From positions 15,566,998-15,630,997 of the forward strand of contig OZ037767.1 of NCBI GenBank assembly GCA_964035545.1: a stretch of 64,000 nt of DNA. The letters run 5' to 3'. The translations under genes and the position numbers were made by a program. Shown here in pieces: positions 2,464 through 64,000 of this stretch. Numbering within the stretch: the stretch's first letter is position 1; each line of letters begins with the position of its first letter. The DNA is from Bugula neritina (lineage: Eukaryota; Animalia; Bryozoa). The notes beneath the pieces were generated by a model that saw only the letters and a program-made list of their open reading frames with translations, was not told where the DNA came from and did not search any database.

Positions 2464-3049
2464 CTGGAACTTGACTTGTTGCATCATCTCTTTGTTCTGT
2501 AGAGGCGGTTCTCTGGAGTCCAAATATTTCATTATTTACACCAACATCTATAGGTATTCTTTCTGCATGGTTTGATATATTGAAATGTTTTAGCTGCTGC
2601 TCTGCTGTCAGCTGACTCTGCAGAAATGTGAGAATATCTGTTTGGTTAGTCTTAGCTGCTTCCTGTATCACTGTATTACCATTTCTATTCTGTATCTTGA
2701 GTAGCTCTACCTTCTGTTCTACTAATACACCATCTAGTAGACATTTGATGATGTCAGTATGACCTCTTTCTGCTGCAATGTGTATTGCTGTCTCATCCTT
2801 CCAGTTCCGTATCTTGAGTAACTCTACTTTCTGTTCTACTGATACACCATCTAGTAGACATTTGATGATGTCAGTATGTCCTCCGAATGCTGCACTGTGT
2901 ATAGCTGTCTCTTTAAGGAAATTATGAGTCTGTATCTTGAGTAGGTCTACCTTCTGTTCTACTGATACACCATCTAGCAGACATTTGATGGTGTCAGTAT
3001 ACCCTTCCTCAGCTGCCCATTGTATTGCATCACACTCCTCACATAATAG
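2464..3049 (-). CDS. Ankyrin-repeat exon, 3' part (about four 39-41-aa ankyrin repeats), interrupted by the LTR element
   Basis: Reads ..DAIQWAAEEGYTDTIKCLLDG..TAIHSAAFGGHTDIIKCLLDG..TAIHIAAERGHTDIIKCLLDG..TVIQEAAKTNQTDILTFL. Repeats are ~117-bp tandem units at DNA level; donor CAG|GT at 2464/2463. Confidence 0.85.
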
Positions 3050-4159
3050 TGTAGTAATTTGTGCAATTACTGAGCGTGAGTTATTTACTTGCGTATAGTT
3101 AGCTGGTTATTCTGCTAGCAATTACTAGGGTAGCTGTCGAGTAATTATATTTATTATCCAAGATAAAGCCTAAAACAAACATCACAGGATAGTTAAGGGC
3201 AACCTTTTAGCTGCAACTGCCTTGCTGAGGTTTGCATTGTAATCATATAAGAATTCAGTACCAGTAAAATAAAATCTCACCTAATTGTGCTAGAGTCAAA
3301 ATTCAAAAACTATGTTGTAGATCTTCTTTTTCCCCAGTGTAAATTTTTGGAAATTTCAATTTTCATTTTTTTTGCAAAGTTATAGACAAAAAACTGCCCA
3401 ATTTTGGCCAATTTTGCCAGAAAAGCTGACTTTTCAGTACCAGTAAAATATCTCAGCAGCAAAACATGATATCTGAATAAAAATTGCATTGCTGGAATCC
3501 TAAGATATTTCTCCAGTGCAACTTTTTTTTTTTTTCCAATAACTCTGCTAGATTGCTCACAAATTGGTGATTTATACACTGAAAATGTCATATTTTTTCA
3601 TAAGAAACTAGCAGCACGCAGCACTTCACGCTTCAATGAGCACGTAGGGATGAGAAGATATTGGCGCGTACATAATAATTACAGGCTTGCTAGCTGGCAG
3701 GCTATAATGAATAGCTTGCTTGGTGCTGTGTTTATGTAGCACCAATAATGGAATGTTGATAGATGACGCAGCCCTAATGAAGGTTGCTGCTTATTGGTTG
3801 TAGTTTAATCTTAGGCTAAACAATTGCAAGTAGGCAACACGCATGCCACCCGCAGAGCAATATTATTCAAGAACCTGAACTACATTTTGAGAGAAATTTA
3901 TGATATTCTTGCTGAGGATGCCCTTAACTATCCTGTGATCACATCAAATTATCCTATACATCAGTCAACTACTAACACATGTTACTACTTCAAGCCTCCG
4001 CTTACAACAACGTGATATAATGTTAATAACCCGGGAAGTGTCACGTGAATCGGAAGCATATCTTCCGGAGCTGCTAATTGGTTGCTACATAAGGGTCTAA
4101 GTATTCCAAGAGTAGAGAGAGGGCGATTCCCGTATTTGTACTTTGCACTACTCACTACA
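3050..4159 (-). repeat. 3' LTR (353 bp plus a 755-bp nested DNA element and 2-bp TSD)
   Basis: 3050-3182 and 3940-4159 match the 5' LTR; 1110-755-2 = 353 bp. Confidence 0.95.
3183..3937. mobile_element. Non-autonomous CACTA/EnSpm-like (CMC) DNA element nested in the 3' LTR
   Basis: 19-bp TIR CACAGGATAGTTAAGGGCA / TGCCCTTAACTATCCTGTG; 2-bp TSD AT; absent from the 5' LTR; no credible coding sequence. Confidence 0.85.
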
Positions 4160-4175
4160 CCGCCCCCCCCCCAGC
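4160..4175 (-). promoter_or_regulatory. Polypurine tract next to the 3' LTR
   Basis: A G-run on the minus strand (plus: ccgccccccccccagc) directly abuts the 3' LTR. Confidence 0.75.
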
Positions 4176-4457
4176 AGAAAGCCCTACTTTCTGATAACAC
4201 AATAAAAAAAAAACACATAATGAAAAACTATACAATAATCCAAAAAGAAAAACATACATAAGTAAACCCACAAAGAGTAAGAAGAGAAATAGTTGAGCAC
4301 GACAACATTTACATTAGAAGACAACAGGGTGATCGATCACACACATCTAGTCAGCTATTAAGAGAGAGGGTGCTTACCAGCACGCGGGCCAATGTCGGAG
4401 CACTCGTCACTTTCTAAACGAGTTACAGCTCAACGAAGGTGCCTACCCCAGGCATTC

Positions 4458-5153
4458 TCATTGGATGGACTCTGATTCTTGTAGGGATCGTGCTCTGTGT
4501 CGAGCCTGTCGGGCACGTAGCCGCCTCTTCAGTCGCCCCACTGAGTCCTTCAACTGGTATAGACCTGTCGTCGTATCCAGCAGGTCAGGGGCTTGTAGTC
4601 TTACAAGCCGCTCTTCTACATTAGCCAGCTGGCTAGGCCTTGGTGGGGTTGTAGTAGTCTCCGTTAGAGGGGGTATTGTTGTCTCTTCTCCTTCTGGGAT
4701 GTTGCTAGGGTTGACGGGGGTAGGAGGCGGGCCCTGAACCATAGGGGACTTATGGCGGGCGGATAACAGCAGTACGTGGAACCCTGACGCTAGTGCGGCC
4801 AGGGTGATAGCCTTCCTGATGACTGGCTTGATGGCATCCAGGTATAGGGGGAAACTGTCTTCATCAACAGTGTGGTTCTCTCCGGCGAAGCAGCTCAGCT
4901 TATGTACTGTCACGAGATACGGGTAGACGTCGTGGAACCCGCAGGGACAGAAGTGGAGTAGGAAATGGGCGTCTACATGTAAACGCAGGGAGCGGTGTGA
5001 CGGGCACTCCTCAAAGCAGACCTGGCAGGTTCGGTGTGGTCCACTGGGTCCTCAGGCTTCTTCAATTCTCCTTTCCGTCGTGGGTGACACCCAACGGTGT
5101 CGTCGACGGAGCACCACGGGTATGCCATTCTCCATTACAGGCTCTTCTTCCAT
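4458..5153 (-). CDS. Accessory ORF3 of the LTR element: C2H2-type zinc finger(s), Pro/Thr linker and basic coiled-coil tail; one in-frame TGA
   Basis: ATG at 5153 is in frame with listed ORF 4458-4913. Contains CQVC-x12-HVDAH (4965-5027), then CPC-x12-HKLSC, and tail LKDSVGRLKRRLRARQARHRAR. Single TGA at 5052-5054. Confidence 0.7.
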
Positions 5154-5520
5154 AGGCAGAGAGGTTGGCTGGTCCCGTGACCGGGAGGTGGTCACTCGAG
5201 TGTGATCTGAAAGAGTAGCAGTGTTAAAGATTATACACTGAGGTACCGTCAGCGTGTACAGCCTGACCGGTACTCTGTTCAGTTACACTCGTGAGATTCA
5301 GGCTAATGAATAGTTGATGGAGAACACACTCGCTATGACAGATTATTTAAAATCAAAGTCGACGTGTATTCCCACCACTGTTTATCATTATCAAATTTCC
5401 AGCTCGCTAGCTAGTGTAGCTAAAGCTGACTGATGCAGTCTAGTTATCGTACCAAAAACATAATTAACTCACCCTTCGATCCAGAATAGTAAGACATTTT
5501 GGAATGAGAGCGGTAAATGA

Positions 5521-7779
5521 TTACTGTTTACTGGCACGTCTACTCTCGACTGCATCGACATAGGAAAAGACCGGACAGCGTGGTTGTGAAACGTGACTAG
5601 GGCTTTTCACTTCCAGCGGATGAATCTCGTGTGAGATTCCGCCGAGGCAAAAGTTGAGATTTTCGTGGTGATCACAACTCCCACGGCTCTTTGCCTGTTT
5701 TCCCATGCGAGGCCTCTCTAGACTTTCGTTACTGCCGCTTATATCGCGGTAACGTACACAGTCTCTGAGACACGCTGGAAGTTGCCTAGTGTGTGGTCCT
5801 GGTCCTACGTTGGTATCTCCTTGCGGAGCCCCTCTCACGGGGGGTTTTTGCACTTCTGGACCTGTTTCTGGCTCCGGAAGTGGTGATGATGGCAGGCTTG
5901 ACGTTGGGGGCGGTGGGCGCACTTTCAAGGACGGAAGTGGCCTTTCTCGCCTCGCCAAGTCTTCCTGACGTGTCATGGAGGTGTTTCCGGCCAGGTTGAC
6001 AGTCTCCGCCTGCCGAGACCTTCTCGCACAATGCGTCTGCCGCCCCGCTTCACCAGGGAGACGGCTATGCTTGTTGGTCTGGCAGACTTTGCACCGTCTC
6101 ACTCTGCGTCGGATATCCCGTTCCATGTTGGGCCAGTACCACCGGAGTTGTAGCTTGGTGACCACCCCTTGGACTCCTCCGTGAGTCTCCTCGTGGGTGT
6201 CTTGTATCAACTTCCGGCGGATGGCAACTGGGCAGACAACCCTCTTCCTGGCTGGCTGTCTGCTGTTGGCGGCCAAGGTCATGGTCAGCAGATCATCTGG
6301 CCCGACCCGCAGAGAGCTCCAACGTTGACAGTACAGCCGTAACTCGGCGCATCCCTGTCGCCGTTGTGTACTACTGGGTCGTCGCCCTTCCTGTTTCGCT
6401 CGGTACACGTCGGCTACCACCCCAGGAAGGCATTCCTGGAGCTTCGGCAGCTCCCTAACGTTACCAGCCCATACAGGTTTGGCGCGGAGGCTCTGGACAG
6501 CCTCCGGGGGCGTGTCAGCCCTCTGTTGGAGTAGCTGAGCAGGGGCGGTCCTCGCCGCCCGTGGTACCTCACGGCAGCCTGCTCCATTTAGGCGGGCTCC
6601 GTGGTCTGTGTGGCGGAACGCCTCACTGTACCCATGTGACAACCTAGCCATAGCCTGGCGCTTCCCGTTGCCTGTGCAGCCACGCGTCCCTGGAGGAGGG
6701 GAGGCGTGGGTTGGGACGGTCCTCCGCCCTCGAGACGGGCTCTGCTGAGGACCTTCCGTCGTAGCTCCCGACGACGGCCCAATGGCTTCCTCCTGGACAG
6801 GATGGAAGCGACCCAGCATGGATCTGGGTGGTAGGTCTACTGTCTCTGAGAAGGGGTTGACACACTGCACTGATATCTCTCCTTGTCCCGTAAGCCGGCT
6901 AAAGCTATGGGCAAGTTGGACTCTCGAGTGCGTACTTTCGACAACTCCCAACTTAGAGGTTTGGCCACCGTCTACCTTGCAGCGGACGGTAGCCCGGGAG
7001 TGGCCTGGTATAGTACAGCTCCGTACTACCTGCACTGCTCCCGCTAGAGGACGACCAAACTTATCGACACAAGCGAGCTCCTTGTCGCCCATGATCATCG
7101 CAGATTTACTGAAATCGATGCGACAACCGTGTCGTTGTAAGAATGACATCCCGAGGATAGCATCCTCGTTGAGCTGCCCGACGATAAACGTCTCTTGGAT
7201 GGCCTGGTTACGGACGTAACCAGTTAGCTCAATAATGCCGTAGAAGGGAATGCACGACCCGTCTGCCAGGGTGCCATGATCCCCCTCATACGGTGCCAAC
7301 CCGTCCTTGACTTTAGCGCTGAGGGTGTCAAAGAACTGACGGCTAAGGAGGTTGGTGGTGCAGCCTGAGTCCAAAAGGAAGTTGGCAAGCTTGCCGGCTA
7401 GCTTTCCTGGTAGGAAGTAGCTACTTCCGTGTGGCTGCAATTGTGTGTGCCGTGGTTGCACCTCCCTCGCTGTGGGTCGAGGGGTCCACGGTTGGCGGCG
7501 ACTATTGACCAGCTGCCGAGGTTGGGGCGGTACGCCTTGCGGCGCCTGTACCATTTCCCTCGCAGGCTCTGTGGTCAACCGTCTGCCGGCTCCGTGTTGG
7601 TGCTGGAGTGGCGTAGAGGACCCAGGCGGCGAGTGGCTTGAGCCTACTTGCCGCGGGGGTCGCCACTTCACAGCATCTCCGCGCGGCGCCCAGCGGGGCG
7701 ACAGACGCGCGGGCCTCCCTGGGTGATTTACAGACGGCCCGCATGAGGTGGGAACATCTGCGGGCCGTGGTAGTTTAAC
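5521..7779 (-). CDS. pol: Internally deleted but open pol frame: aspartic protease plus integrase H2C2 finger; no RT, RNase H or integrase catalytic core
   Basis: LLDSGCTTNLL (DSG at 7363-7371) and ILGMSFLQ; H-x3-H..C-x2-C (THEETH..CKVC, 6082-6195); no YxDD or DDE core; lies in the -1 frame relative to gag. Confidence 0.85.
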   Translation of the reverse strand, partial: VKLPRPADVPTSCGPSVNHPGRPARLSPRWAPRGDAVKWRPPRQVGSSHSPPGSSTPLQHQHGAGRRLTTEPAREMVQAPQGVPPQPRQLVNSRRQPWTPRPTAREVQPRHTQLQPHGSSYFLPGKLAGKLANFLLDSGCTTNLLSRQFFDTLSAKVKDGLAPYEGDHGTLADGSCIPFYGIIELTGYVRNQAIQETFIVGQLNEDAILGMSFLQRHGCRIDFSKSAMIMGDKELACVDKFGRPLAGAVQVVRSCTIPGHSRATVRCKVDGGQTSKLGVVESTHSRVQLAHSFSRLTGQGEISVQCVNPFSETVDLPPRSMLGRFHPVQEEAIGPSSGATTEGPQQSPSRGRRTVPTHASPPPGTRGCTGNGKRQAMARLSHGYSEAFRHTDHGARLNGAGCREVPRAARTAPAQLLQQRADTPPEAVQSLRAKPVWAGNVRELPKLQECLPGVVADVYRAKQEGRRPSSTQRRQGCAELRLYCQRWSSLRVGPDDLLTMTLAANSRQPARKRVVCPVAIRRKLIQDTHEETHGGVQGVVTKLQLRWYWPNMERDIRRRVRRCKVCQTNKHSRLPGEAGRQTHCARRSRQAETVNLAGNTSMTRQEDLARRERPLPSLKVRPPPPTSSLPSSPLPEPETGPEVQKPPVRGAPQGDTNVGPGPHTRQLPACLRDCVRYRDISGSNESLERPRMGKQAKSRGSCDHHENLNFCLGGISHEIHPLEVKSPSHVSQPRCPVFSYVDAVESRRASKQ

Positions 7780-8678
7780 CCTTGTTGGAGTTGAGGGCAG
7801 TTCTTCTGGAAATGTCCTGGCCTTCCGCATCCCCAGCAGAAGTTATGCCCCATGCCTGGTGATTGTACCTGCGGCCCGCAAGGCTCACGGGCGGTATCTA
7901 CCTGGCTTGGGGGAGCTAATGTGGCGACCAGTTTATCTAGCATGTCAGTCATCTGCGCGACTTTTGATGCTAGTGACATCTGGTTCACATTAGCCACCGC
8001 GGAGGGTTCCGCGTTTGGTTCTGTATGAGCAGTAGTGTGCTCCGTGGCCACCTGGCGGGAGGCCACGCGGTTGCGGTGCATATGAGTCGCCATGAGGTAG
8101 GCTTCTCCCACCGCCAGTGCATCTTCGACCGTGGTGACTCCCCTCGCTTGGAATTGATGGTGGAGCCCCAAGTCGTTGATGGACTGCACGAAGGCATCAT
8201 AAGTATACTTCTCACGGTGTACTGGAGGCAGATCGCGGAACGCGATCTGCGCTAGTGGGTACACCGTGGCAGCGTGCTCTTCTAGCGACGTGTGAGGATC
8301 ACGCCGCATCCTTTGTAGACGGGCCCGCGCATCTATGGGAGAGATGCCAAAACGGGCCCGCAGAGAAGCAAAGATTCCGTCTATGTTAGGTCCCGCTCCG
8401 TACGGCTTAGCTTTGCCCGTCAGCGCCATCCTGAGCTTTAGCAACGCCACCCTTGGTGGCCACTCTGCAATCTCCATCACATCTTGGAATTCTTGGATAA
8501 ACTGCTCCACTGCTTCTTCGCCGGTGAAGGTGGGCGCCTTCAGCTGGTATCTGTCTTCACCATGCTCTCTAAGAATTCTCACTTCTTCATCTAACACCAC
8601 TGGTTCCACAGGTATATCAACATTATCTCTCTCACCTTCATTCAGTGGAATGGGTAGCTCCGTGCCGTCTTCTGCCAT
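7728..8678 (-). CDS. gag: Gag with CCHC zinc knuckle
   Basis: ATG at 8678; PTFTGEEAVEQFIQEF..WPPRVALLKLRMALTGKAK capsid-like region; CWGCGRPGHFQKNC knuckle. Confidence 0.92.
   Translation of the reverse strand: MAEDGTELPIPLNEGERDNVDIPVEPVVLDEEVRILREHGEDRYQLKAPTFTGEEAVEQFIQEFQDVMEIAEWPPRVALLKLRMALTGKAKPYGAGPNIDGIFASLRARFGISPIDARARLQRMRRDPHTSLEEHAATVYPLAQIAFRDLPPVHREKYTYDAFVQSINDLGLHHQFQARGVTTVEDALAVGEAYLMATHMHRNRVASRQVATEHTTAHTEPNAEPSAVANVNQMSLASKVAQMTDMLDKLVATLAPPSQVDTAREPCGPQVQSPGMGHNFCWGCGRPGHFQKNCPQLQQGLNYHGPQMFPPHAGRL
7773..7779 (-). promoter_or_regulatory. Candidate -1 ribosomal frameshift heptamer G_UUA_AAC
   Basis: gag reads TTA AAC and the -1 frame GTT AAA CTA is the pol frame; the same heptamer is at 55202-55208 in the second element. 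Confidence 0.65.
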
Positions 8679-8694
8679 GACTGCTATACGCAAG

Positions 8695-8712
8695 ATCCCA
8701 CCGCTGCCACCA
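8695..8712 (-). promoter_or_regulatory. Primer-binding site complementary to the tRNA-Leu 3' end
   Basis: Minus strand TGGTGGCAGCGGTGGGAT, 1 nt inside the 5' LTR; plus strand ATCCCACCGCTGCCACCA matches the conserved eukaryotic tRNA-Leu 3' end with CCA. Confidence 0.9.
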
Positions 8713-8713
8713 C

Positions 8714-9066
8714 TGTAGTAATTTGTGCAATTACTGAGCGTGAGTTATTTACTTGCGTATAGTTAGCTGGTTATTCTGCTAGCAATTACTAGGGTAGCTG
8801 TCGAGTAATTATATTTATTATCCACAATAAAGCATAAAACAAACATCACATCAAATTATCCTATACATCAGTCAACTACTAACACATGTTACTACTTCAA
8901 GCCTCCGCTTACAACAACATGATATAATGTTAATAACCCGGGAAGTGTCACGTGAATCGGAAGCATATTTTCCGGAGCTGCTAATTGGTTGCTACATAAG
9001 GGTCTAAGTATTCCAAGAGTAGAGAGAGGGCGATTCCCGTATTTGTACTTTGCACTACTCACTACA
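8714..9066 (-). repeat. 5' LTR (353 bp)
   Basis: TG..CA termini; direct repeat of 3050-4159 after removing the nested insertion, with about 5 substitutions counted by eye. Confidence 0.95.
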
Positions 9067-9199
9067 ATAGTCTATATCTCTCTTCTAATGATATGAAAGG
9101 AAGGCACTTCTTCAGCTCAGACAGAATATTTCCCTCTTCATCTCCACCTCTAATACTAATGAGTATTTGAGTGAACTTTAGCACTTCATTCTGATTCAT
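9067..9199 (-). CDS. Ankyrin-repeat gene, 5' part of first coding exon (ATG at 9199)
   Basis: MNQNEVLKFTQILISIRGGDEEGNILSELKKCLPFISLEERYRL continues in frame into LCEECDAIQWAA once the LTR element and one ATAG copy are removed. Confidence 0.75.
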
Positions 9200-9810: not shown

Positions 9811-11436
9811 GGAGTACACTGACAAACACAAATACCCAATTGATAGAAGCTTAGTCTATATTCTGACACAGTTTTTAGACTCCTTTAAAATGCAGCTTGT
9901 GTTAGGATATCAAATAATTTGCTTTTCTTGAACTTGTTCCCAATTTCTGTTCTATTAATATTACATTTATACATTGTACACTATCTATGCTTTATATATT
10001 ATATATCATGCTATGCTTTATTTTACTATAAATGCATTGATATTTGCAATATCTATATTATTGTAACTTATAAGTACACTATTTGTATGCTGTCAACACC
10101 CTATGAGATTTCATTGATATAATTATTACATAGTATGAATGACTTAATAGCATAATGAGGCTGTATCTGGTTTATAGGTTCTGGCCGTGTGACTTTCAGC
10201 TGCCATGACAGCTACAGAAATGCACTTGGCGCTGCTTTTGTGGAAATAAAAACCCCAAAGTTTACTAAGAAGATATTTGTGCTCTGCAACTATTATAGTT
10301 TTTAAAGTCATGTTTTTATGTAAATTGCAATAATATATTTATTTGCATTTTTTGGTTCAAATTATTATATATATTTGAATTTCTGCAAACTTGTAGTGCA
10401 ATAATAAAACTAAATTGTGCTTTTACTGAATGGTGTGTAGGTACAACTTATAGACCCTTACTTGGAGGAATCTATCTGTCACGTGTGCAGAATCAGTTTG
10501 GGGCCCTACTTTTGCAGACATCCAATGTGCTCCAAGGTAACACGATTTCTCTATTATCTTGAGAAAAATTAGCTTTGCTTCTAAATCATGAAAAAATATA
10601 TTTGACAAGTATAAGTATTTGATTATTTATTTAATTGAATTTATTATTTAATGCATTTTTTATTATTTAATGCTATACAATTTTATAAAAAAAATTAGCA
10701 GTTTGAGATTTGCACATAAAATTAATTTGACAATCATGAAAGTACAATTGCTATAATAATTGTTACCATAATTTATGTTATTATAATACATTAGCTGTTG
10801 GTGAGAATAGACTTTTCACAAGGAAAATTTTTTAGCATGTCACTTTTCCAGATTTACTTCAAACAAGTCGTGGAAAATGTTGCTGGGAGCTATTATAATC
10901 TTACTGAGTTCATATGTAGTTCAATTTTAACTAAAAATAATAAATTGACAGTTGCAAGAGATGACAAATAGGGGCTGATAACAAGATGTTTAAATTGTTA
11001 AATATTTTTGACACATAATTTTTAGTATACTGTAAAAAATAGTATAAGGTACAAAGTTTTTAAAAGTCAATTAGTTTATAAACACATTATTAATATCAAA
11101 AATTGTTCAAAATATATATTAGATTTTGAAAAAACATTACACTGCATAGAAATTTTTTATTTTATTGTCCAGTATATAAATACAATTTTTTGATCAAAGA
11201 ATTCGTAATATTTTAACTATTTGCCTGACCTGACTGACTTTGATTATGCAATTCGATTTTTAATAACTAAGATTTATCTGATTTCATTCTCCCAGTACTT
11301 CTGTGAACTCTGTTGGCGCTGGCAGCACTCTGACTTGGGGGAAGGAGCCCAGGCTCATTATCCTCTTACCAGAAACTCTAAAAAGAGTCGTGGTTTCTCA
11401 GAAGGAGGCTCTAGACTCGCTAGAAATGGCATTTAA
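9811..11436 (+). pseudogene. CPEB1: 5'-truncated, intron-containing fragment of a CPEB1/Orb-type gene (end of RRM2 plus ZZ zinc finger)
   Basis: 9811-9842 (GV-TDKHKYPI, with indel); 10178-10272 [21 protein letters not shown]; 10441-10536 VQLIDPYLEESICHVCRISLGPYFCRHPMCSK; 11296-11436 YFCELCWRWQHS..HYPLTRNSK*. Donors after the first two segments read AT instead of GT, and no upstream exons are seen. Confidence 0.85.
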
Positions 11437-12264: not shown

Positions 12265-15200
12265 CTAAACGAGCACATAGCAAGTAGAACTTGAAGAATG
12301 TTCTAGCACAACTGAAACCTCATTATGAATATAACATTTAGCTGTAGAGGTTATTGAAAATGCTGCACAATCTTCATATTGCACACTGCAAGCGTAGGCA
12401 CATGATTCTATTGAGAGCTGTTTGAAAACCCCAACGCAGATTTACTGCTACACATGCGATCAGATGATGCTGAGAATCTTTTATGCTTTGGATGACTCAT
12501 GTAGTAAAAAGTTTGAGAAGTTTTGCTGTAGACAATGAAATTATTCTCAGATGATGTGGCGGATATGAGGTCAAGGTCAGTGTTCAGACCAGTCACCACA
12601 ACATCTACTAATCCAACATGGCCGCTACTCACTTTAAATCTCTTCAGTTTTCCTTTGTTTACAAACAGCTGTTGCCCATCCACAACAACAGGTGTGCAAT
12701 TGTTGCTGCACTCAAAGCTGACAGTGTTGGTGTTTTTGTGAACTAGAGATTTAGCTTCGCATGTTTTAATTTCACCTGTAAGTGAAACAACTCCAAATGA
12801 TTGAACTGTTGGATAATGAAAGTTGTCGGAAAAACTAGTTACAAAACCAAACTGAAGACCGTAGTAGCCATGTATAAGAAAATATGAGGGAGAGATGCTT
12901 AAAATAACGGAGTAAACATTATTGTTTTTCACACAATTTATGATTAGTCGTGTGACGTCTGCAAAGTATAAAATTGCCATGTGAGTTGGTGAATCAAGTC
13001 TAATATCAGAGATTCGAGAGTATGTTTGATATGCAATGAGGGTACCTGCTTCACCGCATTGACCAATCATAGCATAGTTTACATTTAGTAGGTCATCAAG
13101 ATTTGCTGCTTTTATACAGTGCTCTGATTGGTCGGCTACAAAAATAAATTGTTTCTTGTGAGATTCTAAAAGGCTGAGTTTTGACAGGTTGACAAGAATA
13201 ATATGACTAATTGAGGTGAATGTGTAGGAATTTTGCAGATAAGCACAACCTTGTAGCTGCACACCAGCTACTACTGTACAGTCTCCATGATGATTGATTT
13301 CCACAAGTTGTTTTGATGTAGCTGCTATTATTTTAGTAGAATCAGTTGGATGTTCAATAAAGGATATGATGTTATGGTTAGTAATTTTATTGACCTCAAT
13401 GTGACTAGTGGCCTGGTAAGGAGTGCTAATTGGACCATCTGCCGAATCAATTATTAACCTTTGACCTACAAATAGGTACACAGGTGGATTTTATATATCT
13501 GTAAAAACTGCTTATGCGGAAAGGCTTTTTAAACGGACTAAAGATTTGCTTTTTATATTAGGGCACAAGGGCAATTATGGCTAACATTACCAATACAGCA
13601 TTATAACAGAAAATTACTGTTTAACCCATATATAATATGGTAAAACATCCATTCAACAATGTTAGCATTTTATGAAACTTTTCATGTAAAAACCAAATTA
13701 AAGAATTTTATTCAGTAATTCTCCGTAAGTTTTGTTAGTTTGCTGAAACTTCATCTTTTTGAATACCTTTATAATACTTTAAACAGACATTACACATGAT
13801 TTGAATATTGATTAGCGCTACATGAATTAGCTTAGGACTTGTTTGACAAAGATTAAATTTAATATTTAAATTATAATTATGTGTCAAATATTGTACTATG
13901 ATATGTTCAAATTTGTTTTATTATTCTAAAACTTGTTTGACTTCATGCAAGTCCAACATTTTGGCCTCTAATGTAAACGAACAATATTTATCATATCTAC
14001 AAAGCACTTAATGCAATAATTTCATTCTTATCAGCAAAATTGCATTTTCCGAACATGAGAACAGGTGTTTATTTGATTTTTAAAAAACTATAACAATAAA
14101 CATTTCCTTAATATCATATTTGCAATATAGAATATTTAATTTAAATTGCGGTACCTTATATGAACTGCGGTAAGCATTATATGAATTTAGTTTTATTTAT
14201 ACCTCAACTGATCCTATATTATAACCTACAATAGGCCTATAGTACGCTGGTCCTATATATATTACTTATAGTCCTAATTTTACTAGTCCTAGATAATATA
14301 ATAAACTGGGCCTATGTAATACTATAAGTCCTATAGTGTTGGTGCTACAATAGCCTATTGGTCTTATAATAAGCTGGTCCCATAGTACTGGTTCTATTAA
14401 ACTGGCCCCCTAACATTGGTCCTATCACTCACAATATATCTATAAAAATACATTATTTACATATTATATATAGCTGAATAATCAGTATATCATAGTTTAT
14501 TATATATAGAAACAATAACAATTAATTTGAAGGACAACTGTTTATAAACCAATCACATTACCTGGGAAAGTCTTGTAAATACTTTTCCTCCATGTTCCAC
14601 CACACATTTGACTACTGTTCCCTCTGCATGCTCTACGACACTCAGTTTCCCCTGCTTCACCATGTTTGTTGTATTCAACACCACAGTAACACTGGTCAGT
14701 AGATTGTACTCCTGCATATGGCTGCCCTGGAATTAGTAAATTACTAATCGATCTTTATAAATATAACAACACGATAAATCACAAAACACAAATTTTTTAT
14801 AGTTCAGCTACAATTGGCAGATTCAAACTTAAATGCCTTTGTTGTGTTGAAATGGAAGAATACTGAAATCGATGAAAATTAAAAATAAACGTTTTCAAAG
14901 AATCAACATCATTATCAGGTATACTGCAGTTACTTTTTTAAAAATTATAAAAAGATTTACCTTGTATACTGCAGTAGCCAATACAAAGCTCTACGGTCAT
15001 CAAACGAGTTGAAAATGCTATGGGTAACGCTCTGTTCCTAGAGTCCTTGTAACAACCAATCAGCTGGTTGACAGTGTACACCAGATTCCAACACAGCCAG
15101 AGTTGCAGCAGCACTTAAATTATACAACTAAATTAGTCAATTATTTATAAAAAAAAGTTTGAACTAACAGATGCAAGTATTTAAAAAAATAAAATTTAGA

Positions 15201-17218: not shown

Positions 17219-17406
17219 CAGGGCATAATTTCACAGTATCTCGACCTCAGACATAACACTTATGTACCAATACGAGATACATCACATCATAATTAAATGT
17301 TGTCTATCGGCAAAAATTTTGCAGTAGCCAATCATAGTACTATAACAGGGCAGTCTGAGTGTAGTATCTCGTTTATCGGCATAATTATAATAGCCCGTAG
17401 TTGAAG
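17219..17406 (+). repeat. Left 188-bp TIR
   Basis: CAGGGCATAATTTCACAG..CCCGTAGTTGAAG. Confidence 0.95.
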
Positions 17407-37591: not shown

Positions 37592-37779
37592 CTTCAACTA
37601 CGGGCTATTATAATTATGCCGATAAACGAGATACTACACTCAGACTGCCCTGTTATAGTACTATGATTGGCTACTGCAAAATTTTTGCCGATAGACAACA
37701 TTTAATTATGATGTAATGTATCTCGTATTGGTACATAAGTGTTATGTCTGAGGACGAGATACTGTGAAATTATGCCCTG
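37592..37779 (-). repeat. Right 188-bp TIR
   Basis: CTTCAACTACGGG..CTGTGAAATTATGCCCTG. Confidence 0.95.
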
Positions 37780-38915
37780 GTTCTGTTATGGTTCAGTGTA
37801 CAACCTATCAGTGTAATACATCTGAATCTGAACTCTATTCTCCACAATGAGTAGCAACAGCACATTTGGTGAGTGACTATGCATACAATACTTGTATTTT
37901 TATAATTCATTAGGCAACATTAAAGAGAATATTCTATCTTCAAATTTTGGAAATAAATTATATCTGTGAATAATTAAAAACATTTTCATCATTATAGTTA
38001 GAAAATCTTTTTAATGTTTTTCTATTTTTAGAATGTAACTATTAATAAATTTTATGTAACTTTAGTTTAGCTTGCAGAGCCTTTAAAACTTATTCTAATC
38101 TGATTCTAATCTACAAACTAGTTATACTGCAAATTGTTTGTATAATATCACAGTTATAACTCTTTCAGTACAACAATTGATTGTTTAAATTAAAAATACT
38201 TGCTTAGTACTAAATTGCAGTGCAATACAATAGTGTATTACATAGTTGAGTACAAAACAGGATGTATAAAATGCATTACACTATATTTCAATTTCAGACA
38301 TTAAAAAACTCCCTTCAAAAAAGCGATACACAATAATATGGAGGAATTTTAACATTCCTCCACCTGCACACATAGCAAGACGATATGCTGAGATAATCCA
38401 ACCAGAACCATACTATGATTATAATGAGTAAGTACTGCTTTACTGCTCAGTCTTTTTGTTGTAACCAGAACTTTTAGTCAAGCTGCTCTCTGATTACCAG
38501 ATAAACTTTCTCCATATAATTATTTATAGTCTAGATCTGTCAGGTTTGTGTTTGCAAGGTTTAAATTAACAATAAAGGCATATATTTAGATATAGAAGTA
38601 TTCCATGCATTCAGTAGTTCTATTAGATGATGGTGTAATTCTAAACTTTGACTGACAGAAGAGAAACTGTTATGAGTCTTCATAATAATATCTGAATAAC
38701 TATTATTTTATTATACTTTAGAAAGATGACAAGTAACCTCCAAGATGGTGGACTACATACATATTATGTAATAAACTCTGATACTCAGGTGAAAAGAGAG
38801 AGCTGAATCTGCCACATGCTGATGAACTGAATTACTCAGTTTTCTGTATTTTATTAACTGATCTAAACAAGTTTCCTCAAGTGTAAAGTTAGCTGAAATG
38901 TCAAACCAGCATGTC
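37780..38915 (+). repeat. Direct segmental duplication of 62856-64000
   Basis: Collinear high similarity through exons and introns, starting exactly at the TIR end. Confidence 0.92.
37847..38806 (+). CDS. Three-exon gene for an unrecognised 78-aa protein, copy 1
   Basis: Exons 37847-37868, 38298-38427, 38722-38806 (GT-AG, in frame): MSSNSTFDIKKLPSKKRYTIIWRNFNIPPPAHIARRYAEIIQPEPYYDYNEKMTSNLQDGGLHTYYVINSDTQVKRES*. AATAAA at 39011. Confidence 0.75.
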
Positions 38916-39647
38916 ACCATGATATTTCTATTTATATAACTATATAATTATATGATATTGTATATAAATATATAATGTACTATATTTTACTTGATTGTAT
39001 TATTTGAACTAATAAAACTTTTTATTATCTTGTATATACCAGGCGGGCTGAAGTAGGAATGTGATTTGAATATATGTGCTTACAAATATATATTTTATTT
39101 CATCTAATATTAGATTGTAATCTTTGTTGCCTGCCAAACAAGCAACTTACAGAAAATTTGAGTGAAAAAATAAAAAGAGCTAAGACTCTATTTCTGTAGT
39201 AGATATTTTAATGACTGCTGCTTTCAAACATATGTAGTAACTGCTTTGAATTCAGCAGCCATCAGTCTGTATATCTGGTGTTAACGAAGAATATTTTTAA
39301 TTTGCATGTATTATTATTTTAACACACCTAGCTAAGACTTTCTCTACATTTAAACATGAAATTATAATTGCAGAATCAACACATGCCAATAGTAATTATA
39401 ACCTCCTGTAATATTCATTATTTTAAATTTTGCTTGCCCAAATAATTATAACGAAATTCTTAGGCCGATAAATTTTTACTGGCTTTATTCAGCTTTAACA
39501 GTACAAAAACCATATTTTGTCACTTGTGCTGCCTGTTTCTCTCCTAATAAACAAAAGTTTTGATTATTTTGGCATGGGCATGTTTCTTCAATGTTAAAGG
39601 TCTTTTAGGTAAAAGAAATTTAAGAGTTCAACAGTTTAATTTGTTTA

Positions 39648-45200: not shown

Positions 45201-48200
45201 TTGCAGTAGTCATACATCACATGTTACTCAGTGCAGAGGAACCTGTCAATACAGATGACTCACTCATCCTTCTGCAACTGTCAATCACTCAAACAGAAAG
45301 GTTGGCTGTGTGAGTGATTGACAGGTGTCAGGAGGAGGAGACTAGTCACATTATCTACTAACTTTCTGCTGTGTATTATGAAGTGTCACGTGACTGAGTC
45401 ATTGTATTCTTAGTGGGTGATTAGTCACTTTCATTTCAAGTGTAGAGTTTGGGAGGTGCAGATGTGGTTACACTGTGTTACTATTTATTAGATAGAAAAG
45501 ATTAGAAAGAGAGCTACAAACCTGAGGCTAGAAATATATGGATATTTGAAGATCTGCACACAGATAGTGGATAATTATAGAATTGAGCTGGCCTTGAGTA
45601 AGACAATGGGCAGACAGTCTCTGCTGGACACAGTACAACATGCAGTTGATAAGTTCAATGATGCAGGGATTGTGAGAGACTACAAAGAGATGAGTGGGAA
45701 GATGGAAAAGGCTACAGATATTGGTGTAATAGAGAAGTGTTTACTTCCAGACAGCATCTTGGTACCAACATGTAGGTGGAGTCTATAAATAGTAACACTA
45801 ACTATAAATAACTTTCTGCTTGTAATCAGTTAAATTGCTTTCATTGAATATTTTAATAGGAGAATAAAGAGAAACCTCTGATAATTAGAAAAGTAGATAG
45901 AGTTTATTTATTAGATAATTAAGTTTTGTTCTACTCTCACATTATGAGACATTTCTGCAGTGTTTCAGAGTTTATGATGTATAAGTGAGCTGCTAAACTG
46001 TGTTATGCTGACTACCTGCTGTCAGTATTAACAAAATATTCTCACTTAGACCTGTGCATCACGCAGCAACTTGTAGTATAACTACAGACTGCTTGTATTT
46101 AAAATATCTTTTTATTTTAGGTTTGAAAAGCTGTTCCCCTTCTCCTCAGCTGATGAGATGCTCAAGTTATAGTATTGTTATTTTGTTGTTGCAGACAGTG
46201 AAGACAGTCTGGGACTGAAGCTGCTGCAGCCACCATCTTCTCTACAGTCTGATGGACTTCCTGTACGTGGAGCGTGTTACACAGTAAACATCTCAGCTGA
46301 TGGACATCTTATGTGTGAGACACCAGTACGTGTAGAAGTAATAAATAGAGACACTCTAGATACTATCAGCTCAGTGAAGGACACCGACACTACAAAGTGG
46401 TGGGAGATAATCCAACCTGAAGGGGTGATGGTTGGCAGCTTCTATAACAGAAAGCAGAAAACAGCTGAAGTCTCACTCCTTGATCCGAACTCCTTTGAAA
46501 AGTCTCGCTCTGTCTACAAGCAGTCAGTAGATGGACTCTTCACTCACTATAGAATAGCTCAGCACTTCTCACTGCTCTATACTGTAGACAGTGAAAAGAA
46601 ACAGCTGGTAGTCTGTGATCTAGTTGACAATAATATACAGAAGTTTCCTCTTCTTAAGATGGAGTACCCTTGGCCTGTATGCATCCTCCCAGACTCAACT
46701 CTCCTCATAGGAGACTTCGCTGTAGATGGTAACGTGAGAAGATATAAAGCGGAGAACACAACTCTCACTCTAATGTGGGAGTTTCCTCACACCTCAGAAC
46801 CAACTGGTATTTCCTTTGATCCAACATCTGAACTGATTCACATCTGTACAGAGAGAGGACCTCTCCTCATCCTCTCACTTGAAGGTAAATATTGTGTTTA
46901 TTATAGTAAGTTTAGTTATTTTATATATAATTATGTTGCAGTAAATAATATATTTTAATAATTAACAGTAAACAAATTCTACTCATAAGATATAATATTG
47001 TTAGTATTTATCATGTCACTGATGTTAATTTTAGCTAAAAGTTATGTAATAAAGACTGTAACATGCTGATAGTAGATGTTACATTCTTCATCACATGACT
47101 TATAGCTAATAATAATATTAGTGAATAATACTGCCTCCCTACAATAAGTTTATTTCCAGCTGCAGTAACATGCAGGATGTAAGCACAGGTAAAAGTGTAT
47201 ATTATATTGTATAGGTTTAAGGTGTATTCTGTGTAGTGTGCAGTGAGCTCTTAGTAAACTTTCCATTCAGTCTTCCTTTCCAAGGGTTCACCTGGTAGTG
47301 TAGAGGATAGGGACTCCACACTGCCAAGTGCTGCAAGGGGTTCAAACCCACCCATCAGCATGTCTATAGTTGGTATACTATGGAAGTGTTTTACAGTAGT
47401 TTTAGAGGTGCTTAGTCTAATAATTGTACAGACTGCCAGCTACACATGAGTTATGAGTTGTAGTTTGGCTTCAGTCTAGTGCTGCCATTGTGTTGGTCAT
47501 CAGATAATTTAAAGATAAATAATTCAATACTTTTTGACCCGCCATTACTGAGACTATTGTAATTTGATGATGGCTGGTTGAGCAGTGTTTGCTGGTGGGA
47601 CTTAAGTGGCTGTGGTTGGTTCTTGTCAAATATTTAATATGTGATAATGTTGGAGTAGCTGCAGTAGTATTAGAAATAGACATGTGGGTGTGTTCTTGCT
47701 AAAAGCCACAGGCTAAGTTTGTGGGTCAAGGTCAATACAGTAGTATAATGAGACACTATTTTCTACTCTGTTTGAATATTTACTTCACAGAGAGAAATAT
47801 TAGTGTTAGAGTGAACATTAGCTGACAACTAAAACAGCTCGTTTTTTGGATCCCTAAATTGACCAGCAGTGAATAGAAATTAGTGTCAGGTACTGTTCAC
47901 AGTGAATAGTATGTTAGATCAATGTTGATATAAAGAGTTGTGAAGTTGATTCTTAGTATTTATCACAATGAGCCAAGTTATGTTCAATGGTGATCTTATA
48001 TATGTTCAATGGTGAGCTTAAATATTTTCGATGGTGATCTTATTTATGCTCAATAGTAATATTATATATGTTTAATAGTGATCTTATTTATGCTCAATAG
48101 TGATATTATATATGTTCAATGGTGAGCTTATTTATGCTCAATAGTGATATTATATATGTTTAATGATGATCTTATTTCTGTTCAATGATGATCTTAGATA

Positions 48201-51200
48201 TGCTCAATGCTGAACTAAGTTATATTCAAAGCTGAACTTATAAATGTTCCATGCTGCTCTAATGTTTGTTGGAAATAAGCTTCTGCAAAAATTATTACTG
48301 ATCACTCTGAACTAACTTGTCATAACTTCTAACCAGTAGGAGAGTATAGTAATGTGGATTTTATTGTATATGATAGTTGAATATAAGAAATGCAACAAAA
48401 AATAACTTCTAAAGATTAAAATAAGAAAAAAAAAAACATGAAAATAAGCATTTGCAGAATTTTTCTACAACTGTAAATTCAGTTAACTTTTCTCAATATT
48501 AGCAGAACCTGCTAAGACCATAGTGTGTCATTACATTCTTGCTCTGTAGTGTAGTGATAACCAAGCAGTTGTGGTGTGTAATGGTTAGCACACCTGTGTG
48601 CAAGTCCGAGGTCTGTGATAGTAACCCAAGTACGGGAGGGGGGGAAGGGGAAGTTTTATAACTAATTCTAGCGGTTAGTAAAGTGTGGTAGAACTCCGAG
48701 AAGAGTTGAGTGGTCAGGGAAGCTTGAAGGAGTAGTATAAAAAAGGCAGCTGAGTTCTTGAAAAGTGGGTAAGGTGTAGTGTCGAGAGCACCCAGTGACG
48801 ATTGTAATGTAGTGGTGAGTGCGTCTGCTTGCAGGCTGAAGGTCTCAGCATGACTCAAAGTTTTGTAGTGGTCAAATTCTTTTTTGTGCTCCTATTCAGC
48901 ATCTTTGAGTGTATGTTTTTAAAAAATGTTATGGGATCTACAACAAAAGATAAAATTTGGGTAATATTTAAACTGTATTAACATGAACAGTAAACATTTG
49001 GTTAAGATATACAATCACAAGCAGCTTATAAATCAAGTTCAACTCCGAAGAAGTTGAAGTCTAAGGCCAAAACTAATAGTATCAATGATGATAGCTATGA
49101 ATCTTTCAGCATATTTTCAGCACCACCGTACCAATCGTTTGATTCTGAATAACCATACAGGCTTTGGCAAACTTATGATCATTATGTTTCGTAGTGGGTT
49201 AGTTTGGGTTAGTTTGAGCTTATCAAAATTTAGTAACAATTTTGGCCATCATTTTATTTTATTTCTTTCTTAATTACAAATGCAAGAGCTGTTGGGCATA
49301 ATTAGTTTAGTTAATAGAAGCTTCTCTGCATTAAAATTATCTCAAAATGTCAGTGAACCACAATTTAAGCTGGAGTCAGCATTTTATATGGACCCCTCAT
49401 ATCGAGATAACAGATATTGATAAGTTTCAGTATGTCTATAAATTGAAAAACAAATAAAGTACTACCAAGAAAAATATTGCTACTTAAACATGTTTTTATA
49501 TTTAATTGTGCTGTGCAAAGATAAATAAAAGAATAAACTGGTAGCACGGAAGTTAATAAAAAAATTTGCCAACTCACCATTAATATTGGCATTTTGGTAC
49601 TTAGCTATAAAACAAGAAGCTAGCTTGGCAGCTGCTTAAGGCTAATAACTACTTGTAGGCTGCTAAACTGCATTATTAACAATATGAATACTTCTACAAT
49701 GGGGGGGGGGGGGAATTGAAATTAATGAATTTAGCACAAATTGCTAGAAGGTGAAGTGGAAATAAAACGCTACATTTTTTGAAAATATATTGTTACAGGA
49801 AAACTTGTATCAAATTGATATAGGGATAGAGTAGTTTAGGAAATATAAGTTAATGTGGTCTCTTAAAAGTTATAGTTGCACAAATTCAATTATCTGTCTA
49901 CAGCAATAGTCATACTGTCATTGTGATTGTGATATAAATTCAAAATGACAACGTTAAGCAAATGATTGAGCTTACCTTTTGCTGCAATGACAACTTCAGT
50001 TCCTAACTCTGAAAGAAAGTGATCATCTTCTATCTCTGAGAGGTAGCTGCAATCTTTACCCATGTGATGAAATGATTCAATGTTTTCCCTGTTGTGGGGT
50101 TGTTTGGAAGCACAAATTCACTGAATCTCAAAGCACAACCTCCTAGTCTGAGCCTCTGGTGTTCACTATGCCGGCAAAATATTTCTTCTGTCAATAGCTG
50201 CGAATGAAAACTATGTGCTGTTATGTAATAACCTTTGCTTTGCTCTGTCACTGCTTGGTAAGCCAGTTTCTTGCCTTTGAATTACAATTTAAATATTTCC
50301 TTATTATAGCTCTGTTATGCAACATCTTCTTTTGTTCCACCGGGTAGTTTACACAAGTTTACACAAGGCTTTTGAAGTGGTTCACCTGATCCAGCATTGA
50401 CTATTCAGTAGCTTGTTTCATTGTTAATTTTAAGCTTCTTGTTTGAAACACATTTGCTGATAACTGAGTACATTGGAGTTTAATGGTGCATCTCCCTGAT
50501 CTCTCTTTTACACACATTTTAAATTAGTTGGCTTTCCTTTCCATGAATGAAATTGACTAGTGAAGCCTAAACTACCCATGCAAGAGATATGTGCAGTTAA
50601 AATTCAATTTAAGTCTTTGATAAACGGAGTGGGGCAATGTTTAATAGTAGTCTGAAAATTTGAAAATGTCTTGGCTTCAAAAACATTTCGAAATCATAAA
50701 CAGCTAGTAGGTTGAAGGAGTTTCATTCCACTTATATGCTCCCCAGTTAGGTTGTATTTTTTGTTTTGGTACTAAGTATTATATACCTATATACCCTTAT
50801 ATAACTTTCATATCAATTGCTAAACATAAAATAACCAACAATATGATATATTTGCAATAATATTTAAATTTTTCCAAATTTGTGTTGAAAAAAAGCATTA
50901 AATGCATTAATAATAACATTTTTTCAAAAAACAAAAAATATAGAAAATGCAAAATTAATAGGTTTATGCAGAGCAAAGAAATTTATTTGTGTGCCAATTA
51001 TAAAAAGCAATTGACTCAAATTTATTTAAATACACATATATTTCAATAGTATTCAAATAAATTGCAAGTAAAATGTATAAATAGCATCTAACTTGGAAGC
51101 ACCAATTGAAATGACCCAAATGTAGGGTTCAACTCTATCCTAGCTTCCTATAAAGGTTTGTGATCATCATTAGTGCACATGTGAACGAATAATGTTGTTA

Positions 51201-51787
51201 GGTAAACAACTGCCGATTGTTCCATAATTCTTATGTAAATAAAATTTTGCTTGAACATATGTAGTTGTAGCATTGATCTCACTTTCTGCTCCTTAAAACT
51301 ACTGTTTAGCTTCATTCAGACCTAGGGATGATGATTACGTAATACTTGTGAAAAGTAGCGTTGACTTAACAACTAAGTGGTTTCAGAGCTACTACAAAAT
51401 ATTTTTCAGCTTACACTAATCGGATTAATTTTCAATTTCATCAAAATAAGTGCAGGTCTAACAACTAATAGAGGTGTGGTGCAGGCTATACCGACAATAA
51501 AAGGCTCTTTGAACAACTTTAGTGCAAGCGCTGCACTAATATTTCTCTCTGTGTTCATGCATATAACCTGCTTAGTTTCATCTTTACAGGAAGTCTGTCT
51601 GTTTCTCTCAATACATACCAACTGCTACAATATGCTGCTATTATTTACAGGTCAACTGGTGCTTACAGTTCCCAGAGAAAGTCTTGGTGTGAGTGGCTGG
51701 GTGTATGACATTGCTGTGTATAACAGAGGCACAGTGTTTCTAGCATGTGGATATGATGGTCTAAAGAGATACACAATAAAATACTAA
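42253..51787 (+). CDS. TRIM-type E3 ligase-like protein: RING, two B-boxes, coiled coil, NHL-like beta-propeller (621 aa, 7 coding exons)
   Basis: Exons 42253-42434, 43014-43194, 43410-43599, 44866-45071, 45492-45771, 46195-46884 and 51651-51787 splice GT-AG into 1866 nt with no stop seen. CGYC..LPHLHVYCMRC..CAYC; propeller repeats YPWPVCILPDSTLLIGD and EPTGISFDPTSELIHIC; AATAAA at 52077. Confidence 0.88.
43939..44591. mobile_element. Non-autonomous hAT-like element in a TRIM intron
   Basis: Termini CAGTGGTTTCCAA..TTGGAGCTACTG; 8-bp TSD CTTTAACT / CTTTAAAT. Confidence 0.7.
45278..45324. repeat. Intronic hairpin (core of a small foldback)
   Basis: CTGTCAATCACTCA pairs with TGAGTGATTGACAG. 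Confidence 0.6.
47290..47360 (+). mobile_element. tRNA-derived SINE-like head (Pol III A/B boxes)
   Basis: A-box-like TAGTGTAGAGG (47296-47306) and B-box GGTTCAAACCC (47339-47349); no proper cloverleaf. Confidence 0.45.
47786..51553. mobile_element. ~3.77-kb non-autonomous CACTA/EnSpm-like element, copy A (in the last TRIM intron)
   Basis: 20-bp TIR CACAGAGAGAAATATTAGTG; 2-bp TSD TT; subterminal ~22-bp tandem array at ~47975-48245. Confidence 0.9.
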
Positions 51788-60700: not shown

Positions 60701-61456
60701 TTGGTTATCGCTACACTACAGAGCAAGAATGTAATGACACACACTATGGTCTTAACAGGTTCTGCTAATATTGAGAAAAGTTAACTGAATTTACAGTCGT
60801 AGAAAAATTCTGCAAATGTTTATTTTCATGTTTTTTTTTCTTATTTTAATTTTTAGAAGTTATTTTTTGTTGCATTTCTTATATTCAACTATCATATACA
60901 ATAAAATCCACATTACTATACTCTCATACTGGTTAGAAGTTATGACAAGTTAGTTCAGAGTGATCAGTAATAATTTTTGCAGAAGCTTATTTCCAACAAA
61001 AATTAGAGCAGCATGGAACATTTATAAGTTCAGCTTTGAATATAACTTAGTTCAGCATTGAGCATATCTAAGATCATCATTGAACAGAAATAAGATCATC
61101 ATTAAACATGTATAATATCACTATTGAGCATAAATAAGATCACCATTGAATATATATAAGCTCACCATTGAACATATATAATATCACTATTGAGCATAAA
61201 TAAGATCACCATTGAAAATATATAAGCTCACCATTGAACATATATAAGATTACCATTGAACATAACTTTGCTCATTGTGATAAATACAAAGAATCAACTT
61301 CACAACTCTTTATATCAACATTGATCTAACATACTATTCACTGTGAACAGTACCTGACACTAATTTCTATTCACTGCTGGTCAATTTAGGAGCCAAAAAA
61401 CGAGCTGTTTTAGTTGTCAGCTAATGTTCACTCTAACACTAATATTTCTCTCTGTG
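57718..61456. mobile_element. ~3.74-kb CACTA/EnSpm-like element, copy B (inverted relative to copy A)
   Basis: Same 20-bp TIRs; 2-bp TSD TG; full-length reverse-complement similarity to 47786-51553. Confidence 0.9.
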
Positions 61457-61581
61457 TGGTAATATAAACATATACTAGTAGGTAATATAAACATATGCTA
61501 GTAATATAAACTTATACTGGTAATATAAACATATACTAGTAATATAAACATATAGAAGTAATATAAACATATACTGGTAAT
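61457..61581. repeat. 19-bp minisatellite GTAATATAAACATATACTA, split by copy B (other half 57661-57717)
   Basis: Same unit on both flanks of the element. Confidence 0.85.
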
Positions 61582-62806: not shown

Positions 62807-62875
62807 ACCAATCAAATTCAAGCACATCCGGTTGTGACTATAAATACAGCAGTGTGTTCTGTTAAGGTTCAGTGT
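62807..62875 (+). promoter_or_regulatory. Core promoter of the 78-aa gene copy 2 (CCAAT, TATA, Inr)
   Basis: CCAAT at ~62808; TATAAATA at 62839-62846; TCAGT at 62869-62873, about 30 nt downstream; ATG at 62923. Confidence 0.65.
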
Positions 62876-62922
62876 ACAACTTATCTGTGTAATACATCTG
62901 AATCTGAACTCTAATCTCCACA

Positions 62923-63883: not shown

Positions 63884-64000
63884 ATCTGCCACATGCTGAG
63901 GAATTGAATTACTCAGTTTTCTGTATTTTATTAACTGATCCACACAAGTTTCCTCAAGTATAATGTTAGCTGAATTGTCAAACAAGCATATCATCACAAT

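Follow-up and report, generated by a model that had tools for sequence, protein, structure and literature searches.

A young Gypsy element of about 6 kb, lying on the minus strand of a 64,000-nucleotide stretch of the genome of the bryozoan Bugula neritina (contig OZ037767.1; hereafter the window), carries in the env position an accessory frame (ORF3) that we regard, judging from its sequence and that of its relatives, as a real and conserved gene belonging to a family. The gene is very likely expressed from spliced RNA, as the arrangement of its splice sites and the structure of a homologue indicate, and its product is probably a nuclear regulator, either a transactivator or anti-silencer or an RNA-export factor. 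The first-pass annotation of the window had already pointed to this frame; re-reading the sequence, we found all the motifs it named in their places on the minus strand, and its central idea of a conserved element-borne gene agrees with relatives kept across families down to about 25% identity. The coordinates of the element and of the gene are given in Table 1.

Table 1. Features of the Gypsy element and of its accessory gene (positions within the window; a slash marks the exon-intron boundary)
Feature	Position	Strand	Remarks
5' LTR	8714..9066	-	353 bp, TG...CA; 5 mismatches/353 against 3' LTR
Primer-binding site	8695..8712	-	presumably tRNA-Leu-like
gag	7728..8678	-	316 aa, CCHC knuckle; PF00098 E=0.001, just under curated cut-off
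First exon, route B	8636..8678	-	Gag codons 1-14 plus one base, then AAG/GTGAGA, intron from 8635
pol-like frame	5521..7842	-	773 codons; protease and integrase H2C2 only
pol-like stop codon	5521-5523	-	
First exon, route A	5473..5497	-	ATG plus 8 codons plus one base, then GG/GTGAGT
Donor GG/GTGAGT	first intron base 5472	-	phase 1
Intron, GT-AG	5207..5472	-	266 nt
Acceptor CTCTTTCAG/	exon from 5206	-	
Exon 2 of accessory gene (ORF3)	4458..5206	-	products 257 aa (route A) or 263 aa (route B)
231-codon frame	ATG at 5153, end at 4458	-	one stop, codon 34
Premature stop, codon 34	5052-5054	-	private to window copy
Zinc finger 1, C-x2-C-x12-H-x3-H	4965..5027	-	
Zinc finger 2, C-x-C-x12-H-x3-C	4890..4949	-	
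Pro/Thr/acidic linker, variable	4635..4730	-	mean pairwise identity 0.35; low pLDDT
Long C-terminal helix (predicted), heptads and Arg-rich end	4494..4628	-	mean pairwise identity 0.82
Donor-like site CTG/GTAAGC, 3' untranslated part	4372..4377	-	by motif
Polypurine tract	4160..4172	-	
3' LTR, first part	3938..4159	-	
Non-autonomous DNA transposon	3183..3937	.	755 bp, inside 3' LTR
3' LTR, second part	3050..3180	-	
Target duplication CTAT, 4 bp	3046-3049 and 9067-9070		flanks Gypsy element

The element shows the hallmarks of Ty3/Gypsy, i.e., LTRs bounded by TG...CA, a target duplication, a polypurine tract and a primer-binding site, the latter presumably tRNA-Leu-like, and its two LTRs are identical at 348 of 353 positions. 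The aspartyl protease of the pol-like frame was recognized at E 0.0005, slightly under the curated cut-off, and the Pfam search found no reverse transcriptase (RT), RNase H or integrase core in this frame, so that the element is non-autonomous. The frame is open through its 773 codons despite the missing enzymes. The closest complete relatives (P0126, P0127, P0128, and P0200) have the order protease, RT, RNase H and integrase (PR-RT-RH-IN), as in Gypsy, and P0126 is matched in two separate blocks, at 52% (protease region) and 42% identity. Another, diverged family represented by P0132 has the same shortened stretch after the integrase zinc domain (45% identity over 66 residues), which runs on into an ORF3 homologue, and for this reason the loss of RT, RNase H, and integrase core is probably old. 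The window contains no second copy.

The transposon that splits the 3' LTR has 19-bp perfect terminal inverted repeats starting CACAG and a 2-bp duplication AT, and we take it to be CMC/CACTA-like; its sequence was very deep in all four sequencing runs compared. The Gypsy element itself interrupts a host ankyrin-repeat exon, with open frames on both sides of CTAT (9199-9067 and 3049-2444, minus strand), and the depth of the public run X1 over the host flank suggests that related host sequences exist elsewhere. Farther along the window there is a very long inverted repeat (about 47780-51553 and 57718-61462, in pieces that reach 896 nt at 94-98%), probably a large DNA transposon, which has 22-nt tandem arrays close to either end. 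There is also a direct repeat of about 1.1 kb (37780-38919 and 62856-63996, 87-95% identity, 25 kb apart), the first copy of which is adjoined by a 188-nt inverted pair (17219-17406 and 37592-37779), and an open frame of 360 codons (12408-13490, minus strand) with no Pfam match at E<=1.

The GGTGAGT motif of the predicted donor is by itself within chance (1 seen against 0.34 expected), but the donor-acceptor pair goes beyond it, as a contig of X1 joins 5473 to 5206, exactly the two places proposed in the first-pass annotation, skipping 266 bases with CT..AC ends at a depth of 843. Among the 10 X1 joints listed this is the deepest and the sole one with canonical ends; it was not seen among the joints listed for runs X4-X6. 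X1 looks like genomic DNA, since two of its contigs (489 and 204 bases) match the AT-rich host sequence 10556-11248 without difference at a depth of about 50, and no canonical host joint was found among those listed. If so, we infer that the joined form represents intron-less genomic copies, most simply reverse-transcribed spliced RNA; if X1 is RNA, the joint is direct evidence of splicing. Intron-less forms, whose absence would have counted against the splicing proposal, exist both in this contig and in the homologue P0026. Against the case for a spliced gene stands that the joint is one contig, flagged "between: not known", with 29 letters on its short side (the bridging threshold was 31), in a run that possibly has the same source as the window.

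The frame was originally thought to begin at the ATG at 5153, and the gag donor at 8635, which lies 14 codons into gag, had been overlooked. That ATG is probably internal, since this donor and the one at 5472 are both in frame with the acceptor at 5206, and we rejected it as the principal start because the 17 codons preceding it, which share the frame of both donors, show a conservation of 0.64. An ATG at 5497 precedes the 5472 donor, which is in the frame of exon 2; in two diverged X1 contigs with a loose end at 5480, read by hand, there is an ATG in frame with the same donor, one codon shorter. In P0026 the first 14 residues match the first 14 of this Gag (12/14 identical) and are followed by the first codon of exon 2, the exact product expected if the gag donor, which is phase 1 and keeps the frame of the acceptor, were used. 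P0026 is the one homologue with this route, and no gag-donor joint (8636/5206) appeared among the 10 X1 joints listed, a further point against the spliced-gene case. Because the 5472 donor follows an in-frame ATG and P0026 independently shows the gag head, it is likely that two first exons exist, one with gag codons 1-14 and one a mini-exon at 5497, giving products of 263 or 257 residues. Along the same lines, 24 proteins whose called frame extends upstream read S-D or L-D where the acceptor lies, the residues that a conserved YAG acceptor gives; they were chosen by pattern, with misses uncounted. Downstream, none of the 10 X1 joints listed used the 4377 donor; a T-rich acceptor-like site (4191-4215, minus strand) just before the polypurine tract could pair with it, and this pairing was likewise absent among them. 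An Inr-like hexamer occurs at 5 places in 4.9 kb, from which we draw no conclusion about an internal promoter.

We consider the window copy of the gene to be dead, given the stop at codon 34. The stop is private to this copy, since 16/16 X1 contigs covering 5052 differ from the window there and homologues are open; P0002, a natural protein 91% identical over the query, reads through this position. The suggestion that it arose from CGA by a change to TGA fits neither the homologues nor the X1 contigs at this codon. After the stop the frame is open for 197 codons, of which the 151-aa entry in the ORF track is the part from a TTG at codon 81. Relative to homologues, the C-terminal helix or coiled coil of the window copy also has an in-frame gap of 6 codons near 4590.

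Using the open 197 codons as query, we identified 119 homologues among 536 candidates and, among clusters at the 50%-identity level, 65 representatives, about 30 of which are at 24-44% identity. The frame is no exon captured by this one copy, an outcome that would have undone the first-pass proposal. The eight zinc ligands are kept in 91, 93, 91, 97, 97, 96, 95, and 94 of 99 aligned rows. Conservation is strongly uneven along the protein: pairwise identity among 54 close homologues averages 0.69 and 0.76 for the two fingers and 0.82 for the C-terminal helix, and falls to 0.35 for the linker. Third codon positions make up 8/11 of the variant sites listed within the frame (p=0.009), a weak indication given that the listing favoured well-supported sites. 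Identity among close families is by itself no proof of selection, because many of the 119 close matches are truncated proteins and the translated intron sequence of P0004 also resembles that of the window. We believe that the case for selection rests on the conservation of the ligands at 25% identity.

The named relatives come from the bryozoans B. neritina and Watersipora subatra. A profile search with A3 over 7,995 candidates gave at least 13 matches, none of them named, and no relative was found in the viral contigs scanned with A1 and P0126; a metagenome locus turned out to be a spurious bacterial match and was dropped. In the distant P0193 the read-through tail resembles, by eye, the window translated across the polypurine tract and the start of the LTR, which suggests that in this family also ORF3 may hold the position before the polypurine tract. 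We found no published description of the ORF3 family in the literature covered, mainly openly accessible papers, so that prior annotation, for instance in Repbase or Dfam, is possible; nothing on the family was found in PMC13269885 and PMC6338049.

Modelling of the N-terminal part in the natural homologue P0062 (99 rows; mean pLDDT 84, pTM 0.71) predicts a domain of ca. 120 residues composed of a helix, two finger-like units in tandem and three helices. In the model of P0026 this is followed by a low-confidence linker and a predicted helix of 57 residues (204-260), for which a two-copy model scored 0.03. The full-length model was poor (pLDDT 52), and a fold search with it gave nothing at E<=0.001. 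The same was true of the domain model against PDB and viral libraries with Foldseek, and VIA-align returned nothing at Z>=5, outcomes that by themselves speak neither for a new nor for a different fold. The modelled residues 19-77 align weakly with the DNA-bound tandem fingers 5vmu_A (Z 4.2, rmsd 3.3, 59 aligned) and 7y3k_A (Z 3.8, rmsd 2.5, 51 aligned), scores that tie with those of unrelated helical proteins (8eqs_B, Z 4.1). At the sequence level, the PDB search gave nothing under E 0.35, Pfam assigned no family to the window-copy protein at E<=1, and over 54 homologues there were 9 weak families, with C2H2 and coiled-coil rows weak only.

The first finger has the classical C-x2-C-x12-H-x3-H spacing, with the characteristic Leu in 98/99 rows. 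The linker and the second finger do not follow the pattern of classical tandem C2H2 proteins: the fingers are separated by 5 residues in 82/82 matches, whereas the canonical Kruppel linker has 7, and the second finger is of the C-x-C...H...C kind. Position 6 of the finger helix is L, V, or I in 78/82, and Arg occupies position 2 in 61 and position 5 in 69. By these features the fingers are non-canonical, unlike typical base-reading fingers at helix position 6, and the two-zinc domain as a whole has apparently not been described before. What precedes the domain carries a net acidic charge in 26/29 rows, whereas the domain itself is neutral or basic in 29/29. The tail is Arg-rich (12 R+K within the last 60 residues), while in several distant homologues the last 45 residues are not basic. 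Leu-rich export-signal patterns were found in the three closest homologues scanned (P0026, P0002, and P0028) inside the folded domain and never in the tail, and none was common to the 10 homologues scanned.

As for known systems, ORF3 shares with the env genes of errantiviruses and retroviruses the place between pol and the polypurine tract. For errantivirus env, a donor shortly downstream of the gag start is joined to an acceptor ahead of the 3' frame, and a splice of this kind, with donor 8635 in frame, is seen in P0026. We rejected an identity with env because the protein has no membrane segment, as the first-pass annotation had also noted; no signal segment was detected by hydropathy, no env family was matched in Pfam by the window protein or 54 homologues, and there is a zinc-finger domain instead. 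The best 19-residue hydropathy in the window copy is 1.56, and values above 1.6 were reached in 2/54 homologues, at a helix within the globular domain as modelled. Retroviruses have well-known small nuclear regulators translated from spliced 3'-region RNA (Tat/Tax/Tas and Rev/Rex/Rec), which ORF3 resembles in logic only; Rec is mentioned in PMC13269885.

The first-pass annotation knew of nothing like this gene, which overlooked CERV of the Caenorhabditis elegans element Cer1, a Gypsy-encoded nuclear regulator with a Gag head and a spliced message whose role has been tested (PMC10309623). Both are non-env frames in the env position of a Gypsy element, read, in ORF3 very probably, from a spliced mRNA with the first exons in the Gag frame; both have a Cys-rich zinc region, flexible linkers and a coiled coil, and in both the 3' part can sit in a polyprotein frame (PMC10309623 for CERV). 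CERV, described as confined to nematodes, has 517 aa and five exons, with the domains H, M, and G (GTPase-like) and possibly a C4 finger (PMC10309623). The bryozoan protein differs in having 257-263 aa, two exons, a C2H2 and C2HC pair and a C-terminal helix, and its domain of ca. 120 residues, linker and helix leave no room for a G domain. Since size and domains differ, ORF3 is an accessory gene of the CERV kind and not a member of CERV. Bdelloid rotifer LTR elements also have non-env ORF3s, said to be typically expressed from spliced messages, and one non-autonomous family keeps its ORF3; these are GDSL esterases, DEDDy exonucleases, coiled-coil or membrane proteins, and the words "zinc" and "finger" do not occur in that paper (PMC5408684). 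Accessory genes in env-less Gypsy elements are also found in the Drosophila MDG1 group, where sORF1 is nuclear; in contrast to ORF3, sORF1 and sORF2 are short, need no splicing and mostly lie upstream of gag, sORF2 acts as a fusogen of membranes, and the word "zinc" is absent from the preprint (bioRxiv 10.1101/2025.03.14.642691).

The same domain is found outside the spliced gene. It occurs in frame at the C-terminus of two complete PR-RT-RH-IN polyproteins, P0127 (46.8 bits when held out of the profile, against 1.5 for the best of 500 shuffles; hhalign probability 96, E=1.7e-9) and P0200 (42.1 bits), in both separated from integrase by about 600 low-complexity residues; it is absent from the frames of P0126, the closest complete Pol, and of P0128 and P0198. 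Two domain copies and a C-terminal helix are present in an annotated gene of W. subatra (XP_067940964.1, P0143) and likewise in P0170. These proteins, together with the likewise doubled XP_067940963.1 (P0188), are candidate domesticated host genes or a source of the domain. In a domain tree of 40 rows the two copies of each doubled protein group together, and because each pair groups with itself the two doublings look independent; the tree leaves the deep order open, and the priority of host gene or element is not readable from it. An Atlas search with P0143 gave, as leads only, clusters without a name at 0.90 and C2H2 clusters at 0.88-0.89.

The explanation that we tentatively prefer, with somewhat less than even confidence, is that the spliced two-zinc-finger, coiled-coil product enters the nucleus and switches on the transcription of its own family or shields it from silencing. 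Either the first 14 codons of gag or the mini-exon at 5497 would serve as a short first exon and be spliced to the acceptor at 5206, and the short-headed protein made from this RNA would enter the nucleus, where the basic finger pair may bind the LTR DNA or the chromatin of the element, the C-terminal helix may oligomerise and the acidic disordered N-terminus may recruit the transcription machinery, with positive feedback on the expression of the element's own family. Such family-specific recognition would explain the survival of the gene in elements devoid of RT, RNase H, and integrase core. The layout, an acidic disordered head followed by a basic finger pair and a heptad helix, would fit a transactivator or anti-silencer and seems transcription-factor-like, although acidic disordered tails are common and prove little. 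Other observations speak against this role: the fold matches to tandem fingers are weak and score no better than unrelated helical proteins, the 5-residue linker and the L, V, or I at helix position 6 are unlike those of base-reading fingers, and CERV, the one tested Gypsy precedent, is needed for RNA export and not for transcription (PMC10309623).

Close behind comes the possibility, somewhat unlikely when taken alone, that the protein acts like CERV or Rev, because the expression logic of CERV is the same and the fingers are atypical for reading DNA. The product of the spliced RNA would bind the unspliced genomic RNA in the nucleus and license its export or block its splicing, so that Gag and genome reach the cytoplasm. 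The env position, spliced mRNA, Gag N-terminus, Cys-rich zinc region, and coiled coil are all shared with CERV (PMC10309623), an export problem does exist because the element has working introns, the Arg-rich tail is the most conserved part among close homologues, at 0.82, and non-canonical fingers could read RNA. On the other hand, the tail loses its basic character in several distant homologues, no exposed export-signal pattern like that of Rev/Rex-type factors is common to the 10 homologues scanned, the matches in P0026, P0002, and P0028 lying within the folded domain, and nothing in the 260-aa protein corresponds to the G domain of CERV. Moreover, copies lacking the intron seem to have undergone packaging and spread, so that discrimination against spliced RNA is not strict.

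Two further roles seem unlikely to us, to a nearly equal degree. Acting outside gene expression through protein contacts, in the cytoplasmic particle, in trafficking or as an antagonist of host defence, would suit non-canonical fingers held in one compact domain with flanking helices, and bdelloid LTR elements do have non-env ORF3s of several unrelated kinds (PMC5408684); the missing membrane or signal segment and the contrast between a basic domain and an acidic N-terminus argue otherwise. Slightly less probable still is a module for integration targeting or chromatin tethering, comparable to a chromodomain at the end of integrase and present either in Pol or as a separate spliced protein. 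The in-frame position at the C-terminus of the complete Pol of P0127 and P0200 and the insertion of the window copy inside a host exon agree with it. However, elements without an integrase core keep the domain (the window element and the diverged P0132 family), ca. [quoted passage not shown] That the frame is a host zinc-finger exon picked up by the element and carried along neutrally is very improbable: the doubled domain in the annotated W. subatra gene, the truncated matches, and a protein identity of about 64% that could arise neutrally between families, as the similar P0004 intron translation illustrates, are outweighed by ligands kept across families at about 25% identity, strongly uneven conservation, a retained acceptor position, fusion of the domain to Pol in distant elements and the excess of third-position variants among the sites listed (8/11, p=0.009).

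A wider scenario, which we put forward as rather doubtful, is that a bryozoan, perhaps also other marine-invertebrate, clade of "complex" Gypsy elements encodes a zinc-finger master regulator with a new domain, a switch of the Tat/Tas or Rev type. The domain would move between the Pol end, a spliced Gag-headed gene and a doubled host gene, and an old non-autonomous lineage, having lost RT and integrase, would keep the gene and trade it for the enzymes of its partners.

LTR retrotransposons are usually seen as gag-pol elements, with or without env and lacking own regulators, and for most frames at the env position no function is known (PMC10309623). Gene finders overlook the true protein in this case, as only a splice yields it. 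A spliced accessory gene with zinc fingers, conserved in many families, would be a second, independently built case beside CERV, with a defined domain in which transactivation, anti-silencing and RNA export can now be tested. That elements devoid of RT and integrase still have the gene is relevant to what a non-autonomous element has to preserve, and the annotated Watersipora gene with its two domain copies may connect transposons with the zinc-finger genes of hosts.
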